The notes under the pieces were generated by a model. It saw nothing but the letters and a program-made list of their open reading frames with translations, had not been told where the DNA came from and did no database searches. DNA of 64,000 bases, taken from Escherichia coli. GTDB lineage: Bacteria; Pseudomonadota; Gammaproteobacteria; Enterobacterales; Enterobacteriaceae. Within the stretch, counting starts at the first letter, position 1, and each line of letters begins with the position of its first letter. Below are positions 33,036 to 56,570 of this stretch, in pieces. Both the position numbers and the translations under genes were made by a program. The stretch is from the NCBI RefSeq assembly GCF_030013595.1, contig NZ_CP122768.1, one strand, 5' to 3'.

Positions 33036-34442
33036 TTACTTGGAATTACTGTTGTTTTCGAACTGCTGCGTTAAGTAGCTGCTGGTGCTATTTAACGAGG
33101 TCATTAAAACGTCCAGTTGGGTAAATTGTTCTTTGTAGCGAGCGACCTGCGCATCAATGCGATCGCTGGCGGCGTTGTAGTCTTTAGTTAACTTATTCAG
33201 GGTCTTACTAACGCCATCGGTAGCGGCTTTAATAATGCCCGTTGTCGAAAGCCAACTGGTCAGGTTGCTGCCGATGGTGGTCGTGATGCCGGTTTTTTTA
33301 CCATCGCCAACAATCAATGCACCTACGCCGCTGGCATCTTTTTTCAATGCAGCGGTGAGTTTGTCGGCATCCAGCTCCAGTTTGCCATCGCTGGGATCGG
33401 TCGTGATACCAATCTGCGCCAACGTTTTATAGTTGGAAGAACTAACGGTATTACTCAGCATCGACTTCAACTGCGTCTGAATCGTCCGCAACGTGGAGTC
33501 GCCGAGCAGTGCGCCATTGCTAGAACTCTGGCTATCAGCTCCCGCATCTACGGCGGTGTATTTGGTCAGGCTGCTGAAGGTATCTATTAGCGAGTTATAG
33601 GCATTCACCCAGTCTTTAATCGCCGTTTGCGCTTTGGAGGTGTCCTGAGTGATGGTCAGCGTCTGGTTGCCCGTGGTGACATCGTTCAGGTTCAGGGTGA
33701 TGTTTTCCAGCGCGTCGCTGATGGTGTTGCTGCTGTTCTCGATGGCGACGTTGTTGACCGTCAGCTGCGCATTCTGGGCGGCGACCGAGACCTCCATGCC
33801 GTTGCTGCTGGCACTGGCGTCATAGCCTATAAAACTTTGTAGCGCATCATCACCGCTAACCGAGAGCGTCATCGCATTGTCAAGGCCGGTGTCATTTGAT
33901 GTGACTGACAGACGATATTCACCGTTACCCACGTTAATGATGCTCGCGCTAACACCCGATTTTGCGTTGTTGATGGCATCACGGATCCCGCTTAACGACG
34001 AGTTAGCCGCGCTGATATCAATGGTAATCGGATCTTTGTCGCCGCCTTGTTGAATGGTGAGTTTGCTGTCGCTGGTGGCGATCGCCGTTTTCGTATCGTC
34101 TCTGGTGGTACGCGTGGTCAGGGTTTGCGCCTGCGCCAGATGGGTGACGCTGATGGTGTATTTCCCGGCGATGGCGTTACCTGCGGTGGTGGCACTGAAC
34201 GCGGTGGTGCTGCTGGTGGTGCTGGTGGCGGAAAAAAGATCGGCTTTAGACAATGCAGTATTGGCGGTCTGGAAAGTCGTCAGCGCGCTTTTCAGCGTAC
34301 CGTAGGCGCTAAGTTTAGCGGTAAACGACGATTGCTGATTTGAAATAGGGGTTAGCGTCGCTTTTTGCGCGGCGGTGAGGCTATCAAGGATTGAACTTAA
34401 ATCCAGGCCTGACCCGACTCCCAGCGATGAAATACTTGCCAT
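33036..34442 (-). CDS. fliD: flagellar filament cap protein FliD
   Basis: 468-aa ORF. Confidence 0.93.
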   Translation of the reverse strand: MASISSLGVGSGLDLSSILDSLTAAQKATLTPISNQQSSFTAKLSAYGTLKSALTTFQTANTALSKADLFSATSTTSSTTAFSATTAGNAIAGKYTISVTHLAQAQTLTTRTTRDDTKTAIATSDSKLTIQQGGDKDPITIDISAANSSLSGIRDAINNAKSGVSASIINVGNGEYRLSVTSNDTGLDNAMTLSVSGDDALQSFIGYDASASSNGMEVSVAAQNAQLTVNNVAIENSSNTISDALENITLNLNDVTTGNQTLTITQDTSKAQTAIKDWVNAYNSLIDTFSSLTKYTAVDAGADSQSSSNGALLGDSTLRTIQTQLKSMLSNTVSSSNYKTLAQIGITTDPSDGKLELDADKLTAALKKDASGVGALIVGDGKKTGITTTIGSNLTSWLSTTGIIKAATDGVSKTLNKLTKDYNAASDRIDAQVARYKEQFTQLDVLMTSLNSTSSYLTQQFENNSNSK

Positions 34443-46349: not shown

Positions 46350-46425
<76 letters not shown>

Positions 46426-46479: not shown

Positions 46480-46553
46480 GGCGCGTTAACAAAGCGGTTA
46501 TGTAGCGGATTGCAAATCCGTCTAGTCCGGTTCGACTCCGGAACGCGCCTCCA
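46480..46553 (+). tRNA. cysT: tRNA-Cys (anticodon GCA)
   Basis: ggcgcgttaacaaagcggttatgtagcggattGCAaatccgtctagtccggttcgactccggaacgcgcctcca. Confidence 0.95.
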
Positions 46554-46565
46554 CTTTCTTCCCGA

Positions 46566-46652
46566 GCCCGGATGGTGGAATCGGTAGACACAAGGGATTT
46601 AAAATCCCTCGGCGTTCGCGCTGTGCGGGTTCAAGTCCCGCTCCGGGTACCA
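46566..46652 (+). tRNA. leuZ: tRNA-Leu (anticodon TAA), long variable arm
   Basis: gcccggatggtggaatcggtagacacaagggattTAAaatccctcggcgttcgcgctgtgcgggttcaagtcccgctccgggtacca. Confidence 0.95.
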
Positions 46653-46694
46653 TGGGAAAGATGAGAATAAAATCAAAGCAATAAGCAGTGTCGT

Positions 46695-46720
46695 GAAACC
46701 ACCTTCGGGTGGTTTTTTTG
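46695..46720 (+). terminator. rho-independent terminator of the tRNA operon
   Basis: aaccaccttcgggtggtt hairpin followed by T-run. Confidence 0.75.
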
Positions 46721-46782
46721 TGTCTTCTTTCTCATTTCCGAAGATGCGTCCGAAGATGATTTTTCTCTGGACGCATCATCAT

Positions 46783-47799
46783 TCATTTTCTCTGGCCACC
46801 AACTACGGGCACTACTTTAACTTTTCGGTCATATGCTGCTGTCTGTCGTGGGTTCTTATGCCCGGAAATTGCTTGCTTCTCTTCCAGGCTGCCTTCCAGA
46901 TCAGAGATACCTTTTGCTTTCAGATCATGAAATGTGAAGTCTATTTGCAGATGAGGATATTTTTCCTGTGCTGCCGCTTTGACATCACGCCAACGAGAGT
47001 TAAAACCATCACGGGTGTACTTGCCTCCGGTAGTTTGATGAATCACAAACAGGCTACTGATTCCCGGTTTTAATGGCAGAGAACGAGCCAGAGCTATCGC
47101 TTTCTGCAGACGAGGCGACCAGGCTTTGATTTGCTTAACGCCGGTTTTTCCCTGACGAATGTAGATCCCGGAATCGAACAGCTGGTCTTTCTGTAATGAA
47201 AGTACATCACTCTGTCTGGCCACACATAAGTAGGCAATCTCCATTGCCACGCGAACAACATCAGGAGACACTTCATAAACGGCCTGATATTCTTCATCCG
47301 TAATATAACGTTCGCGTGCTGTCTCTTTAAACTGCTTAACTCCCTGACAAGGATTCCTCTGGACATAACCTCGTTCATAACCCCAACGGAATACCCTGGA
47401 CATAAAGCTTTTTTCCCTATTTGCCTGAGTTCGGCTTGATAAACCGCGTTGATCCATATAGCGCCGAATATGTTCAGGTTTGATTTTATCCGGGTCGATC
47501 TTCCCGAAGACAGGCAGAACTTTTCCGGAATATTTTGTGTAGTCTTTCCTGGTTTCGACTGCCAAATCCATAAAATCAGGGGAGGTCATGAATTGTTCCG
47601 CGAGCGCCTGAAAAGTATTTCTTTCTTTTTCGTCACCGACCGCTTTTTCATATGCCAGCCATACGGCTGATCGTGGCGCATCCAATGCGCACAGGCGTAT
47701 CGCTTTGTTATCTTTATTCCTGAATTCGTAGGCCGCTTTGCCCTGGTAAACACGAGGCGGCATCCAGTTATCTGCTGGGTTCTTTCTCTTTCCGGCCAT
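46783..47799 (-). CDS. int: phage tyrosine integrase
   Basis: ORF 46783..47826; likely start ATG 47799 with GGAG 9 nt upstream; C-terminal catalytic region. Confidence 0.8.
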   Translation of the reverse strand: MAGKRKNPADNWMPPRVYQGKAAYEFRNKDNKAIRLCALDAPRSAVWLAYEKAVGDEKERNTFQALAEQFMTSPDFMDLAVETRKDYTKYSGKVLPVFGKIDPDKIKPEHIRRYMDQRGLSSRTQANREKSFMSRVFRWGYERGYVQRNPCQGVKQFKETARERYITDEEYQAVYEVSPDVVRVAMEIAYLCVARQSDVLSLQKDQLFDSGIYIRQGKTGVKQIKAWSPRLQKAIALARSLPLKPGISSLFVIHQTTGGKYTRDGFNSRWRDVKAAAQEKYPHLQIDFTFHDLKAKGISDLEGSLEEKQAISGHKNPRQTAAYDRKVKVVPVVGGQRK

Positions 47800-48031
47800 T
47801 AAATATTGCTCCAAAATCAGGTTCATCTTCTTTTCGCGTCGTCACCTCCTGTAAATTGCGAAATTTTATTGGGTTCAAGAAATGGCCCCAGGTTGTTTTT
47901 GGGTGCCCGTCAGCCCTTTCCATGAAGAAAATTCCAGCCCGGCGAAGAGCCTCACATTGCTTTGATTTAAGTGGGCTTCCCGTCAGCTCGACCATTTCTT
48001 CTCTGGTGATTATGTCGTGATCGCTTTTCAT
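47768..48031 (-). CDS. small phage protein, DUF4224-like (excisionase-associated)
   Basis: 87-aa ORF overlapping int start, typical xis-like position. Confidence 0.5.
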   Translation of the reverse strand: MKSDHDIITREEMVELTGSPLKSKQCEALRRAGIFFMERADGHPKTTWGHFLNPIKFRNLQEVTTRKEDEPDFGAIFNGRKEKEPSR

Positions 48032-48423: not shown

Positions 48424-48992
48424 TAGCGTACCCTCAGCGAACGTTCGCCGCGTTCCAGATGTGCGCCTGGTACCGGGTTTAATAACTCGGCTGGTGGTGT
48501 TTCTCCACGCGCCAGTATTTCGGCGGCAACCGCCTCCGCAGATTCAATCACTTCTTTAATGGCTCGCTTGTTTGGTGTAATAACCGTTTCTACATCAACA
48601 AGTGACACGCCTTCATACTCATCCGGGATCTTATCTTTGCTATCGATAATTACCCGGATAGCCCCCTGTGCATCAGTAAATGTGTTTTTTGCGGTTTTTA
48701 GTTTATCCAGGCCAGCAGCTTGCAGGCAGGCGAGCATATGCTTCCGAATTGCTTTTTCCTTGCCTTCAAAGGACGTCTTACGGGTAGCCAGGCGAGACAT
48801 TTCTTCAGCGCAGGTACTGGCATTGCCCTGTAAATTACGGCAGATGACCATCATGGCGTCCAGTTTGTCTCCCAGTTCTCCTTCCATACCTTCAAGCGTG
48901 TCGGCGATCATCTCTGGCGTCAGTTCGTCGGAGGTTTCTAACAGGTCAATCAGACTGGCATATTCTTTTGCAATAGCGATAGCAGTGCTCAT
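48423..48992 (-). CDS. Siphovirus Gp157-like phage protein
   Basis: 189-aa acidic ORF; family assignment from recall, tentative. Confidence 0.5.
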   Translation of the reverse strand: MSTAIAIAKEYASLIDLLETSDELTPEMIADTLEGMEGELGDKLDAMMVICRNLQGNASTCAEEMSRLATRKTSFEGKEKAIRKHMLACLQAAGLDKLKTAKNTFTDAQGAIRVIIDSKDKIPDEYEGVSLVDVETVITPNKRAIKEVIESAEAVAAEILARGETPPAELLNPVPGAHLERGERSLRVR

Positions 48993-51214
48993 GCTGTTTG
49001 CTCCTGTGCTGCGGTGAGGGCGGTGAGGCGTTCGGTTTTGATTTCATTCAAACGGCGCAGGCGCGAACCAAGATAAGTTGAATACTCCTTATCACCTTTG
49101 GATTCTGCGGCCTTGCGGTGAACTTCTACTTCCCGCGCAATAAGGCCATAGACTTTATTAACTTCATTGGGGGTTACGGCTGCAGCCAGTGTTTTGGCAA
49201 CACCTGAGAGTCGTTCATCCAGTTCTTCACGCAGTCGGGTAGCATCCTCTGCTTTCTCGCTTGCCTTCTTAATACTGTATTCTGTATTCAGCTCGGCGGT
49301 GTAGGCACTATCGTTATGCATATCCATATAAACATCTGCCGCAAATCCCAGATGAGATAGTGCTTTGACGGTGGCATCAGTAAGAGACTTTTTGGAGGCC
49401 TCTTTTTCCATTACCAGTGCCCCTTTGTTATTTTTTGATATGTAATCCGTGTGGCCATATGACGGAATAAATCCTTTCACTCCGTTCCAGATGTACCAGA
49501 GATCTATCCGGATGGTGTGTACTGACAGGCAGAACAGGGAACCGTCAGCATCCCTGACAGGTTTTTGTCCAATAATTTTCCCTGTCTGATCCTGTATAGG
49601 TTCAAGTAATGGCACACCGCGATCCACTCGCTCCTCCTTGATTTCAACTCCCCAACCAATGCCTTCCATTCCCAGCACTTCAGTCGCACGCATCAAAATA
49701 TATTGTGCGCGTATGGAGTGCAGTCCTGCACCGTAATCATTATGTGTGACATACGCAGGATCGGTCCGCTGAACGCGATTCCAGATAGCCAAATTTGCTT
49801 TGCTCTGGTCATCATTCATTGCTGACAGATAATGCTCCATGCGAATTGATGCAGTTTTTTCCTCGGCATGGGGCGGCTCAACCAGCGCGTCAACGTTCTG
49901 CACCAGGTCTTTTACCTGCTCGCTAAGTTTTTCTTGTGGAGGAGTCTCTTCTGCCGGGGTAATAGCTGCAGGTTCCCTCTGTGATACGGCGTTATTTTCA
50001 GGTACGTCATACACATGGCGAGGCGTGACAAACTGCTCACGCAACTGCTGCAAACTACGTTCTCCAGCATTTGCTGCTTCGCTTTTTTCGCCCTGATTTG
50101 AGGGTGTTTCTGACATCATTCCATCAATTGAGAATCGCCCGCCGCCGTGGTTGGTGACTTTTACATCATCCTTTGGTGCTGTTTCCTTTGGCTTCTCTTC
50201 AACAGCATTTGCATCACGCTGCCCGTTAGCTTGCAGCCAGTTGTCGATGTGACTGCGCAGGGATTGCGGGAAGTGGTACGTGTCTTTTGCGGGGGCGCTC
50301 TGAATAACACCGAATACTGATGCGCGGTCATAGGCAAGGATCTGATCCGTTGTGCGCAAGGCCATTGACCAGCGTTTAAAATCCTCCCGATCCTGGCTGA
50401 TTATTTCGTCTGCCGCTTTCAGGACGCTGGGGGTGATTTTTTCCGGGCCAACGGGTAACAGGGCGCAGGCAATTTCACGATCCAGTGTGGCGTGAGTCTG
50501 TTGGTAAGGACGTGCGGATGCTGTTTCTGGTTTTACCTCCGGCAGCATTTCATCGCGTTTACCGGGATTCTCTACCCATTTTTTTATAAATTTGGAGATA
50601 GTCCAACTGGTCGGGTTTTGTTCCTGGGTATCGCAACTTGCCAAAATTGCATGTACCAGATTATTCAATCCAGCAATATGCATGTACTCGATGGGCTTAC
50701 ACGCCACCATGGCATCAAGAACGATGCGGTTAAACGCGTCAACCTCATCCTCACTGTCAGTATCACTGTTGTCGAGCATCTCCAGGTATTCACGCGTCTG
50801 CGCAAGCAATTCACTGTCGACTTCGTTGGCGTCGTGGCTGAACAGCAGGACGGCGGCGAAGCGTTCACGAGCCGGCAGTTTCATCAGGTCGTTAACCTGT
50901 GCGATATCTGCTGAACCGCTATCTGAATCAGCGGGGGTGTTAACTACCCATTTTTCGCCATCAAAACTGTGTTCTGTGGCAAACGTCTCATCAAACTCAC
51001 CGACGCCAGGGCGCGGTTGGCCCGGGGCATCTTCCCAGATTTTAGGTTTGAAATAGTTGTCGCCGTGGTCAGGGTAGGCTTCCCACAATTTGCCGATGAT
51101 GATGTTCTCGGCAACTTTTTTGTTAGGGGCGTCGATGGCGATGGCCAGCGCCGGGATCGCGCCGTTTTTGAGCGCGCCTTTTTTCGCTTCTAACAAGCCG
51201 TTAAAGATGGTCAT
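48989..51214 (-). CDS. large phage protein: acidic N-terminal region fused to Rad52-like single-strand annealing domain
   Basis: 741-aa ORF; C-terminal FCLSVHTIRIDL...SYGHTDY...KALSHLGFAADVY resembles Rad52/Sak core. Confidence 0.55.
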   Translation of the reverse strand: MTIFNGLLEAKKGALKNGAIPALAIAIDAPNKKVAENIIIGKLWEAYPDHGDNYFKPKIWEDAPGQPRPGVGEFDETFATEHSFDGEKWVVNTPADSDSGSADIAQVNDLMKLPARERFAAVLLFSHDANEVDSELLAQTREYLEMLDNSDTDSEDEVDAFNRIVLDAMVACKPIEYMHIAGLNNLVHAILASCDTQEQNPTSWTISKFIKKWVENPGKRDEMLPEVKPETASARPYQQTHATLDREIACALLPVGPEKITPSVLKAADEIISQDREDFKRWSMALRTTDQILAYDRASVFGVIQSAPAKDTYHFPQSLRSHIDNWLQANGQRDANAVEEKPKETAPKDDVKVTNHGGGRFSIDGMMSETPSNQGEKSEAANAGERSLQQLREQFVTPRHVYDVPENNAVSQREPAAITPAEETPPQEKLSEQVKDLVQNVDALVEPPHAEEKTASIRMEHYLSAMNDDQSKANLAIWNRVQRTDPAYVTHNDYGAGLHSIRAQYILMRATEVLGMEGIGWGVEIKEERVDRGVPLLEPIQDQTGKIIGQKPVRDADGSLFCLSVHTIRIDLWYIWNGVKGFIPSYGHTDYISKNNKGALVMEKEASKKSLTDATVKALSHLGFAADVYMDMHNDSAYTAELNTEYSIKKASEKAEDATRLREELDERLSGVAKTLAAAVTPNEVNKVYGLIAREVEVHRKAAESKGDKEYSTYLGSRLRRLNEIKTERLTALTAAQEQTA

Positions 51215-53878: not shown

Positions 53879-54103
53879 ATGTTAAGACATATTGACCGCA
53901 TTACCTGGCGTAACGGCTGGCACCTGAATGGACGCCCGGCACATGTTGCAGAGATCCAACCTATTTTTGATGGGCGTATGGCTGCCGCGCTTTCGGTGTG
54001 GGAGCAGTATGAATCCAGGAAGGTCGAGTTGCGCGACAAAGGGCTGAGCAATGCGGACTATGAAGCCGGTTGTCGTCAGATAGCCGAAGCTCTGGAGATC
54101 TGA
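53879..54103 (+). CDS. hypothetical phage protein
   Basis: 74-aa ORF preceded by conserved leader ...accgaggaaagaccgATG. Confidence 0.45.
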   Translation: MLRHIDRITWRNGWHLNGRPAHVAEIQPIFDGRMAAALSVWEQYESRKVELRDKGLSNADYEAGCRQIAEALEI

Positions 54104-54105
54104 GT

Positions 54106-55182
54106 ATGAGTCGTTTGCTGATTAACGAAAACCCCCTTCAGGTCCTGCCCACGTTGGCATGCACTATAGGGTTGAATGAAGCCATCGTTCTACAGCAAAT
54201 CCACTACTGGCTGAATTCATCTCAAAATTTCTTCGAAAATCGCCACTGGGTGTACAACAGTGTGACCGATTGGCAAGAACAATTCCCGTTCTGGAGCGAG
54301 TCGACAATAAAACGCGTGCTGGCCAATCTGGAAAAATTGAATGTGGTATTTACTGGGAACTTTAACAGTGATGCCTGGGATAAAACCAAGTGGTATTCAA
54401 TCAATTATGCCCAGTTATGTAAGATTGAAGAGACAACATTCCCTGTGGCCAATCGATTAGGTCAAGTTGACCCAATCGAAGAGGTCAATGTGACCCAAGC
54501 ATCAGGTCAAGTTGACCCATGCGCTAAGGTCAAAATGACCCAATCTCTTACAGAGAATACAACAGAGAGTACTACAGAGAGTACTACAGAGATAAAAGAT
54601 CCCCCTTACCCCCAAAAGGGGGAGGGCGAGGAAATCATTCTCGCTGACGCTCAAAAAGCTCTGAACTACTACAACGAGAAAGTCGGTACACGCTGCCGCG
54701 ACGTTAAACCGTTTGTCATGCTGCTGACTGCCACCACCACCCGCGCTGGTTACAGCGTGGCTGAGATTCAGTTAGTAATTCGTTGGGTTATTGCGACATG
54801 GCGCCGTCGTAGCGGAAGCGTGCCGAAACCTGCGAACATTTGCCGCGTAAACCGGTTTGACGGATATCTGGCTGACGCTGAGGCGTGGGCCACTGCTGAG
54901 GCTGCCGTTGACCCTGCTGAAGTTGTGAAGGGCTACAACGAGATTCTGGGCGACCTGCTACCTATAGCTGAAATTGATACTGACCGCCGTCGGGCAATCC
55001 TGCGCCTGCTGGCACATATGCGCACGCAAACTCTTGGCGCATTTATCGGCTACTTCGAAAAATTCCGCGATAACGCCCCAGACTTCTATTTCGGCGGCGA
55101 ATATCGCACCGGCTGGCGGGCAGGGTTTGATTACCTGATGAAGCCAGAAACACTGCGTAAAACCAGGGAAGGGGCATTATGA
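54106..55182 (+). CDS. phage replisome organizer (O-like initiator)
   Basis: ORF 54070..55182; ATG 54106 after GGAG; iterons inside the coding sequence. Confidence 0.7.
   Translation: MSRLLINENPLQVLPTLACTIGLNEAIVLQQIHYWLNSSQNFFENRHWVYNSVTDWQEQFPFWSESTIKRVLANLEKLNVVFTGNFNSDAWDKTKWYSINYAQLCKIEETTFPVANRLGQVDPIEEVNVTQASGQVDPCAKVKMTQSLTENTTESTTESTTEIKDPPYPQKGEGEEIILADAQKALNYYNEKVGTRCRDVKPFVMLLTATTTRAGYSVAEIQLVIRWVIATWRRRSGSVPKPANICRVNRFDGYLADAEAWATAEAAVDPAEVVKGYNEILGDLLPIAEIDTDRRRAILRLLAHMRTQTLGAFIGYFEKFRDNAPDFYFGGEYRTGWRAGFDYLMKPETLRKTREGAL
54459..54542 (+). repeat. four iterons AGGTCAAnnTGACCCA at 22-23 bp spacing (candidate ori)
   Basis: Copies at 54459, 54482, 54504 and 54527; followed by tandem acagagagtact repeats. 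Confidence 0.7.
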
Positions 55183-56570
55183 ATCCAGAAGAACTGGAAG
55201 CGATCGTTCTCGCTGGTCTGATTAACGGTGGCGCGACGCCTGACGCGTTTGATGTGATTGCCACTACTCCGGAGGAAGCCTTCAGCATCGTGTTTCACCG
55301 TCGCGCTTTCAGCGAAATCAAAAAGCAGGCACTGGCGAACGGCATGATCGACATGTTGTTTATCAGCGAAGCGCTGGGCGGTTCCAGCCTTGCGGATCTG
55401 TCTCAAATATCCCGGATCCCGGCAACGGTACCGAATCTGAAAGGCTATGCCGGGAAAATGGTGCGGGCATGGCGGAGCCGCAAAATGGCGGCATTGTTGC
55501 AATCTGGCGCGGATGGTATCCGTAACGCTGTAAACCAGAGTCAGCGTGATGAGGTTATTGAATCTCATGTTGCTCAGGTGCTGGATATGAGCGCCGCTAC
55601 CGGCACAGTCCAGCCGGTACACATCAAAGAGCTGTTACCGCTCTACATTGACACCGTTGATAAACGGATGTCTGGCGACGCGCAGGAAATGATGCTGAAA
55701 ACCGGAGTCGAGGATCTGGATGTCGCCCTGGGCGGTATCAACATGACCGACCTTGTTGTGGTTGCCGGTCGTCCAGGCATGGGGAAAACGGAATTTACCC
55801 TGAAGATTATCGATGGCGTTACCGCAGATGGCGGCGGCGCACTGTTTTTCAGCATGGAAATGGGCGCTCAGCAGATTGTTGAACGTACCGTTGCCGGGGC
55901 TGGGAATATGTCCACGTCGCGTCTGCGTAATCCAAAAGAAATGGACGATGAGGATTTGACCAGATTAACCGCCGCGCTTGCAATCATGCAGGATCGCGAT
56001 ATCTGGATTGTTGATGCCACTGATTTGACGATTGAGCAGATCCGCGCCATTGCAGAGACTCATAAACGCCGTTATCCGCACCTGAAGTTGATTGGTGTTG
56101 ATTACATGGGCCTGATCAAAAAACCGAAGGCCGAGCGCCACGATCTCGCTGTCGGGCATATCTCCCGCAACATGAAGACTATGGCCATGCGTCTGCATAC
56201 CCCTGTTTTTGCTCTTAGCCAGCTTTCCCGCCAGGTGGATTCTCGACCTGCTGGCCAGCGTCGCCCGGTGATGTCGGACCTGCGCGATTCCGGCAGTGTT
56301 GAGCAGGACGCTGACAGCATTTTGTTTTTGTACCGCGATGAAGTTTACACACCTGATTCACCTGCAAAGGGTATCGCCGAGGTGATTATCGGTAAAAACC
56401 GTTCTGGCGGGGCAGGTGAAATTATTTATCAGGAATTCCGGAATGGGCATTTCCTGCCAATTGATCAACACGTAGCACGCGAAAAATTACGCATCCAGAA
56501 GGAGGCAGAGCAACCGAGAAAACGTGAAAAACGGTATTCAAACAAAAACTTTAATACGGACCCATTTTAA
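55179..56570 (+). CDS. DnaB-family replicative helicase
   Basis: 463-aa ORF; Walker A GRPGMGKTEF. Confidence 0.85.
   Translation: MNPEELEAIVLAGLINGGATPDAFDVIATTPEEAFSIVFHRRAFSEIKKQALANGMIDMLFISEALGGSSLADLSQISRIPATVPNLKGYAGKMVRAWRSRKMAALLQSGADGIRNAVNQSQRDEVIESHVAQVLDMSAATGTVQPVHIKELLPLYIDTVDKRMSGDAQEMMLKTGVEDLDVALGGINMTDLVVVAGRPGMGKTEFTLKIIDGVTADGGGALFFSMEMGAQQIVERTVAGAGNMSTSRLRNPKEMDDEDLTRLTAALAIMQDRDIWIVDATDLTIEQIRAIAETHKRRYPHLKLIGVDYMGLIKKPKAERHDLAVGHISRNMKTMAMRLHTPVFALSQLSRQVDSRPAGQRRPVMSDLRDSGSVEQDADSILFLYRDEVYTPDSPAKGIAEVIIGKNRSGGAGEIIYQEFRNGHFLPIDQHVAREKLRIQKEAEQPRKREKRYSNKNFNTDPF

Follow-up and report, generated by a model that had tools for sequence, protein, structure and literature searches.

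Putative tandem arm-type integrase sites in the attL of an Escherichia coli prophage inserted in leuZ

The arm-type sites of phage lambda, P'1-P'3, P1 and P2, follow the consensus C/AAGTCACTAT. Lambda has five of them, bound by the N-terminal domain of its integrase (Int), and sites for IHF, Xis and Fis lie between the arms and the core (PMC4880445). In this paradigm Int is heterobivalent and, aided by bending proteins, forms bridges between the arms and the core (PMC4880445). Of the same integrase family as the locus described here (47-64% identity) are the serU/tRNA-Leu prophages ST64B, ZF40 and Chris1 of Salmonella, Pectobacterium and Citrobacter. For ST64B, one paper deals with IntA-mediated reintegration (PMC12455584). 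We found no published arm-site mapping for ST64B, ZF40 or Chris1. Anticodon-loop sites are reportedly a class of tRNA integration sites set out by Williams in 2002. Crossover centred on the anticodon is recognised as such a class, the 'A' sites of Islander, in which the identity block starts at the anticodon loop and runs through the tRNA 3' end (PMC4383910).

We analysed a 64-kb stretch of E. coli DNA (hereafter the window) that contains the uvrC-pgsA-glyW-cysT-leuZ region with tRNA genes at 46350-46425, 46480-46553 and 46566-46652, the last of which was called as leuZ by ARAGORN. leuZ is the last gene of the glyW-cysT-leuZ operon and the integration target, and its 3' half in this lysogen is a copy supplied by the phage. 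A preliminary description of the window had pointed out a repeated motif and an inverted repeat between the tRNA terminator and the 3' end of an integrase gene. This placement was correct, with the terminator at 46695-46716 and the integrase stop codon at 46783-46785 (Table 1). The motif belongs to a prophage of about 45-50 kb inserted in leuZ. According to its RefSeq annotation, a near-identical lysogen has early genes of the lambdoid type, followed further along by lambda-like head genes and P2-like tail genes. Of 5,426 complete E. coli genomes, 439 contain the 78-nt motif region, every time beside this integrase. About 8% of complete E. coli genomes carry the prophage whose attL is delimited here, among them those of ST131 strains such as JJ1886.

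Table 1. Features of the leuZ attachment site and the adjoining integrase region (positions in the window)
Feature	Position	Strand	Basis
leuZ, tRNA-Leu(UAA)	46566..46652	+	ARAGORN; Rfam tRNA; RefSeq annotation of syntenic genomes
att identity block, 125 bp, at both prophage ends	46598..46722	+	attL (window, HCP5S3_I2) compared with attR and empty site
Anticodon loop TTTAAAA, presumed 7-nt overlap (crossover) region	46598..46604	.	attL/attR/attB identity starts here
IHF-like site AATCAAAGCAATA, 1 mismatch to WATCAANNNNTTR (weak candidate)	46671..46683	+	pattern scan of reconstructed attP
leuZ intrinsic terminator hairpin and T-run, phage-borne copy	46695..46716	+	terminator scan; fold
P' arm-type site nearer core (putative)	46736..46746	-	int-sense CATCTTCGGAA; exact repeat, invariant in relatives, ZF40 position match
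Imperfect hairpin after int stop	46739..46781 (43 nt)	-	repeat search, folds, conservation in lineages A, B, C
P' arm-type site nearer int (putative)	46748..46758	-	int-sense CATCTTCGGAC; exact repeat, invariant in relatives, ZF40 position match
Second direct repeat TTTTCTCTGG	46761-46770, 46786-46795	+	repeat search; second copy overlaps last int codons
Tyrosine integrase	46783..47799	-	338 aa from RefSeq start; ORF reaches 47826 (347 aa)
DUF4224 / PHROG 1266 'excisionase' gene	47768..48031	-	overlaps int start; Pfam, PHROGs

The limits of the attachment site were given by a comparison of attL, attR and the empty site. Approximately 5,000 complete E. coli genomes with an empty site match the window only up to 46722-46725, and yecA follows leuZ there. 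In strain HCP5S3_I2, which is 99.7% identical to the window across attL, the far prophage end repeats 46598-46722 exactly, beginning with the first base of the anticodon loop, and RefSeq labels the displaced fragment 'tRNA-OTHER'. The phage therefore brings along 125 bp copied from the leuZ 3' region, with which the gene is rebuilt on integration. This block contains the leuZ 3' half, the trailer and the terminator, starting at the anticodon loop and running to the terminator T-run. Unlike in the described anticodon-loop class, with which it shares its starting point, it extends 70 nt past the tRNA and takes in the operon terminator. Since the empty-site match stops at 46722 and the attR repeat comprises 46598-46722, the motif (46737-46758) lies outside the identity block in prophage-only DNA, in the phage arm next to int, which corresponds to the P' position of lambda.

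The preliminary description had considered the motif as a possible attL core, i.e. the site of strand exchange. The motif is indeed close to the tRNA and adjoins int, and a search of the other prophage end in a near-identical prophage recovered a motif-like copy, a similar 10-mer. However, this attR copy lies 115 nt to the phage side of the identity block and not at the junction, the true duplicated block is 46598-46722, and the motif is absent from attB: among the empty leuZ loci that we compared it was never found without the prophage. In the free-phage genomes of ZF40, ST64B and Chris1 the attP ends at the same tRNA position, the anticodon loop, and it is the tRNA fragment and not the repeats that stands where host homology ends. 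The attL/attR/attB comparison thus refuted the motif as att core, and we regard the probability of this reading as virtually nil.

Based on the start of the identity block, crossover would take place in or next to the anticodon loop, and the inverted core-type sites would come from the anticodon stem (46593-46597 / 46605-46609). At position 46664 attL has G, and A is found in the attR and attB of the same genome or of related ones. This is consistent with an exchange to its left but suggestive only, and G46664 is a weak crossover marker because the attL of the commonest E. coli variant likewise has A. In the reconstructed attP we found four one-mismatch matches to WATCAANNNNTTR, compared with 0.73 in shuffled sequences, and no perfect match. 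Two relatives (L078 and L081) showed perfect WATCAANNNNTTR matches beyond the core, in a flank that is possibly part of a neighbouring element in tandem and not of their own P arm. attL is delimited as a presumed core in the leuZ anticodon loop, a phage-supplied block at 46598-46722 and the repeats as probable accessory Int sites.

Some att regions of relatives showed peculiarities of their own. A feature annotated as 'tRNA-OTHER' in RefSeq (L003:27720-27824; attR of NZ_CM149870.1) is a displaced leuZ 3' fragment joined to phage DNA and not a functional tRNA. In four IMG/VR contigs (L010, L012, L015 and L016), the leuZ 3' fragment, about 190 nt past the int stop, is preceded by unrelated DNA (...gagggattttaaaaactatcaacc...) instead of the leuZ 5' half, which suggests that a second element may have integrated in tandem at the same anticodon-loop site. 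L058 and L078 have a similar neighbouring element.

The sequence around the motif reads ...tttccgaagatgcgtccgaagatgatttttctctggacgcatcatcattca... in the window. As previously described, the motif is repeated: TCCGAAGATG occurs exactly twice on the plus strand, at 46737-46746 and 46749-46758 with a start-to-start distance of 12 nt, and no further exact copy was present in the 64-kb window. In the sense of int it reads CATCTTCGGA. A chance or neutral 12-bp duplication without function has to be weighed at this point, as such repeats are not rare window-wide: a chance model predicted 0.36 exact 10-mer repeats at 10-15 nt spacing per 64 kb, with at least one in 30% of simulated windows, and the window holds three. 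Within one given 60-nt stretch the chance of such a repeat is about 3e-4. By itself the TCCGAAGATG repeat is not significant window-wide, and its weight comes from comparison with relatives. There, invariant sites amid diverged flanks and a family-wide architecture with conserved geometry, as described below, argue against a duplication without function, which we consider extremely unlikely. The second direct repeat, TTTTCTCTGG, was judged incidental and dropped because it is not conserved: relatives carry GGTCAGAAAAAATGA... and ...GCGGAAAAA... in its place.

Among relatives whose integrases are 81-87% identical (from IMG/VR and genome contigs), the arrangement CATCTTCGGA-NN-CATCTTCGGAA was invariant while the approximately 60 nt of DNA between stop codon and terminator were heavily substituted. 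The sole departures were first-base changes, namely AATCTTCGGA in two sequences and GATCTTCGGA in one, and some of these relatives carry a third partial copy of the motif. In the wider family with 47-69% integrase identity, which covers Serratia, Yersinia, Xenorhabdus, Arsenophonus, Pantoea, Pectobacterium, Edwardsiella, Aeromonas and Photobacterium as well as the phages ZF40, ST64B, Chris1 and 689R5, two to four tandem repeats with 11-13 nt spacing are located at or just after the int stop. At least two tandem copies were found around the int stop in 97 of 104 family loci, compared with 73 of 312 control windows inside int; for at least three copies the respective numbers were 41 of 104 and 1 of 312. 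The motif itself varies by lineage (ATCTTCTGAA, ATATAGTGAA, ATATTAGGAA, ATGGCGAA, ATATTATGAA, TTTTCTCA, ATACCAAG and others), with constant position and spacing. A pattern scan of IMG/VR for the tandem site added only one new contig.

The geometry of the sites, expressed as site starts relative to the centre of the anticodon loop, was likewise shared. The int-proximal sites start at -157 and -145 in the window type, -155 and -143 in ZF40, -131, -118 and -108 in ST64B, and -131, -118 and -107 in Chris1. In the other arm, which lies outside the window and for the window type was taken from related lysogens, sites were found at +109 in the window type, +46 (inverted) and +110 in ZF40, +47 (inverted) and +110 in ST64B, and +112 in Chris1. 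In four lineages with unrelated motifs and two tRNA targets, the other arm therefore holds an extra copy at approximately +110 nt relative to the anticodon loop. At +46, the related lysogens of the window type also showed an inverted match of 7/10. The +109 site has two mismatches in the commonest E. coli variant, where it reads CGTCTTCTGA. Loci L010, L046, L058, L078 and L081, in which a different element abuts or possibly abuts the core, were left out of the other-arm geometry.

Based on this conservation and geometry, together with the copy in the other arm and the arm-binding-type N-terminal domain of the integrase (see below), we consider it highly probable that both TCCGAAGATG copies are tandem P' arm-type Int-binding sites of attL at leuZ. 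Arm-type integrase sites had been among the explanations offered in the preliminary description, and this explanation was strongly supported by the family-wide tandem repeats. The three phages of the family share the arrangement of int stop, two to three tandem repeats, a tRNA 3' fragment up to the anticodon loop, an inverted site at about +46 and a direct one at about +110. They differ from the window in the sequence of the repeats (TTTTCTCA, ATTAGGAA and ATACCAAG), and ST64B and Chris1 also in their target, which is tRNA-Ser, while ZF40 targets tRNA-Leu. Similarities to lambda att include tandem direct repeats in the int-side arm with separated copies in the other arm, a three-domain tyrosine recombinase for which lambda Int gives the best sequence and fold matches, and an excisionase gene directly upstream of int; the IHF-like (one-mismatch) matches between arms and core are weak candidates for a further one. 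In contrast to lambda, the motif is unrelated (CATCTTCGGA), there are two P' copies instead of three, and the core is located in a tRNA anticodon loop and not between gal and bio. Because the phage carries 125 bp of host-identical DNA, the putative P' sites are approximately 145-157 bp from the presumed crossover, i.e. about 150 bp and farther than the P' sites of lambda. The family map combines two to four tandem sites by int with one inverted site (near +46) and one direct site (near +110), all of lineage-specific sequence, and with residue 27 of the integrase, which tracks the motif (see below). It represents a natural series for the evolution of arm-site specificity and a practical rule for att-site annotation in this integrase family. 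The current understanding of site-specific recombination is unchanged, and the arm-site system is of an already well-known kind.

The integrase showed the three-domain layout of lambda Int, with an N-terminal arm-binding-type domain at residues ~1-60. Among proteins in the PDB, lambda Int was the closest solved structure by sequence and matched colinearly. An AF2 model (pLDDT 85) predicted three strands and a helix at residues 17-55, and Foldseek aligned the whole model to full-length lambda Int with an E value of 1.8e-15. The predicted fold of the N-domain was closest to lambda Int(1-64) bound to P'2 DNA. The model thus predicts a separate N-terminal arm-binding-type domain ahead of the core-binding and catalytic domains. 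Unlike the fold, the N-domain sequence showed no detectable homology to lambda Int: a Pfam search with the N-terminal 70 aa gave no arm-binding family and only a sub-threshold match to DpnD_N, and a PDB profile search with the N-domain alignment gave no lambda match, the best hit being a methyl-CpG-binding domain with an E value of 0.16. The catalytic residues R195, K218, H291, H314 and Y323 are present. The canonical R-K-H-R-H-Y set is incomplete, as the second catalytic Arg (R311 in lambda Int) is replaced by Lys (K294 in FHDLKAKG, HDLK; window 46918-46920, minus strand), which was invariant in 26 of 26 aligned family members. This is a variant catalytic signature that concerns the chemistry and not the use of arm sites.

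The identity of residue 27 (window 47719-47721, minus strand), located in strand 2 of the N-domain after a conserved 'EF', followed the motif across the family loci (L004-L193): H was found with TAGGAA in 12 of 13 cases, K with TCTGAA in 11 of 11, Q with AGTGAA in 6 of 7 and R with GGCGAA in 5 of 5. Residue 27 might therefore be a specificity determinant, a possibility that rests on a correlation confounded by phylogeny. When N-domain identity was compared with repeat-unit similarity in a Mantel-type test that corrected for the remainder of the protein, the partial r was 0.07 (P ~0.09), and the remainder itself correlated better with motif similarity (partial r 0.22, P 0.0005).

This absence of an N-domain-specific signal in the Mantel-type test might indicate that the tandem repeats bind another protein than the integrase N-domain, for example the DUF4224 excisionase, a factor of the host or a regulator of the phage. 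An excisionase-family gene next to int, and the binding of tandem direct repeats by lambda Xis, would fit as well. Against this, the sites of lambda Xis are confined to the P arm, and tandem copies by int with dispersed copies in the other arm are the pattern of Int (PMC4880445). The same motif is present in both arms at conserved distances, the predicted arm-binding-type domain of the integrase needs such sites, and residue 27 of this domain tracks the motif. Binding of the repeats by a protein other than Int is therefore very unlikely in our assessment.

With the repeats read as arm-type sites of Int, a mechanism can be proposed by analogy with lambda. The integrase would be heterobivalent, with its small N-terminal domain on the arm-type sites and its core-binding and catalytic domains on the inverted core-type sites that the leuZ anticodon stem provides. 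The strands would be exchanged in or adjoining the 7-nt anticodon loop (46598-46604), approximately 150 bp from the arm sites, and bending by IHF or a similar protein would join arms and core in the intasome. The complex would be completed by one or two further arm-type sites of the other arm (~+110 and ~+46 from the loop). The adjacent DUF4224 'excisionase', a candidate recombination directionality factor, would presumably set directionality. For this scheme we infer physical binding by Int, the exact crossover point, the involvement of IHF and the role of the excisionase.

The motif also overlaps with an inverted repeat. The preliminary description had noted an inverted match of gacgcatcatc to gatgcgtc; the inverted repeat is present but its extent was understated, as the real arms are 17 nt long (46740-46756 / 46764-46780) and 82% complementary. 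They contain a perfect 9-bp core of GATGCGTCC (46743-46751) and GGACGCATC (46769-46777), and in the inner stem 46764-46767 pairs with 46753-46756. The 5' arm of the hairpin is 46769-46777, and the 3' arm, 46743-46751, is made up of the last part of one arm site, the 2-nt spacer and the first part of the site that follows. RNA of the inverted repeat folds with approximately -21 kcal/mol on either strand, and a 101-nt segment that includes the leuZ terminator gave z = -4.9 in int sense and -4.3 on the plus strand relative to dinucleotide shuffles.

Alternatively, the function might reside in the inverted repeat (46739-46781), which would form a stem-loop at the int mRNA 3' end and serve as terminator, exonuclease barrier or processing site, with the direct repeat as its by-product. 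In a weaker version, compatible with the arm-site reading, the hairpin would add a function of its own to that of the arm sites. The stem-loop starts 2 nt past the int stop and folds with -21 kcal/mol. In lineage A the non-site 5' arm ATGCGTYCG is kept while the flanks diverge, and single changes give U.G pairs in the int-sense strand only, so that the int-sense strand folds with -15 to -18 kcal/mol compared with -10 to -13 (z ~0) for the opposite strand. In lineages B (Serratia-type, ATCTTCTGAA) and C (Morganella-type, ATTCTGAA) the post-stop segment is again complementary to the junction of sites 1 and 2, with differing sequences. In Escherichia whittamii (L114:2215-2256) a 7-nt deletion in the hairpin loop left both stem arms intact, and the ST64B lineage has a canonical GC-rich hairpin with a T-run at the same place. 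In the hairpin alignment 89.6% of cells were paired, compared with 23-45% in slid controls, for a single consensus structure that under-represents lineages A and B because they pair in different registers.

Several results argue against the hairpin as the functional unit. The stem has no U-tract (its tail is UUCGGAAAUGAG), and the terminator scan gave no minus-strand call at the inverted repeat. The idea that it is the integrase terminator, also put forward in the preliminary description, thus holds only as far as a real and partly conserved hairpin is concerned, at most a 3'-end element of a non-canonical type, and a canonical intrinsic terminator was ruled out. A search against Rfam at E<=1 returned only the three tRNAs and sub-threshold noise, which rules out a known RNA family. 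Covariation was not significant, as one pair showed a double change and 42 of 500 shuffles reached the observed pairing. The hairpin is missing in many lineages, including ZF40, Chris1, L067, L073, L078, L081 and many other loci, where the repeats abut or overlap the stop codon. The tandem repeats are nevertheless retained in these lineages, so that they are not there for the sake of the hairpin, which also leaves the copy in the other arm unexplained. Taken together, it seems doubtful that the inverted repeat is the functional unit.

A comparable element in lambda is the sib/tI hairpin, likewise a stem-loop of the int 3' untranslated region with a possible influence on the fate of the int mRNA. 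sib lies beyond attP, is separated from int by integration, and is an RNase III substrate with terminator function. In contrast, the window hairpin is located between int and core, remains joined to int in the prophage and has a stem of only ~13 bp without a U-tract. A retroregulator of the sib type was rejected, since the window hairpin is not beyond attP and integration leaves int linked to it. ST64B differs again in having a canonical terminator between int and the repeats instead of the window's arm-site-overlapping hairpin.

The arm-site function thus remains the preferred reading of the repeats, and the hairpin is possibly a lineage-restricted element of the int mRNA 3' end that is secondary to it. 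A dual-coded element, in which the same nucleotides would be Int arm sites in DNA and the 3' arm of an int-sense RNA stem-loop controlling termination, stability or processing, is in our opinion unlikely. If dual coding were true, selection would keep the non-site 5' arm complementary to the arm-site sequence of each lineage, and integrase expression would be tied to the sequence of the integrase's own binding sites.

Two of the lineages mentioned above showed further particularities. In the ST64B lineage (L006:2498-2545, L193 and L087) the T-run after the int stop merges into the first TTTTCTCA arm-type repeat. Escherichia whittamii (L114) carries the integrase and arm sites as in the window, except for the first arm site, which reads GATCTTCGGA.

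The prophage of NZ_CM149870.1 (L002 and L003), the closest relative in a complete genome, contains insertions of an IS3-family element and of ISVsa5 in its exonuclease and terminase regions, and this copy is probably defective for this reason. The window prophage encodes an intact 741-aa ORF at 48989-51214, the position that corresponds to the exonuclease of the relative. Tandem repeats were also seen elsewhere in the window. A GGTGGTGCTG-type repeat with 12-nt spacing at 34203-34235, in host DNA and unrelated to the prophage, looks like a Gly-rich low-complexity stretch. In addition, about four tandem copies of ACAGAGA(G/A)TAC with a 12-nt period, followed by an A-rich stretch, were found at 54550-54597 inside an ORF at 54070-55182 (plus strand). 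They are located just upstream of an ORF for a DnaB-like helicase (55179-56570), and look like origin iterons within a replication-initiator gene, as in lambda O.
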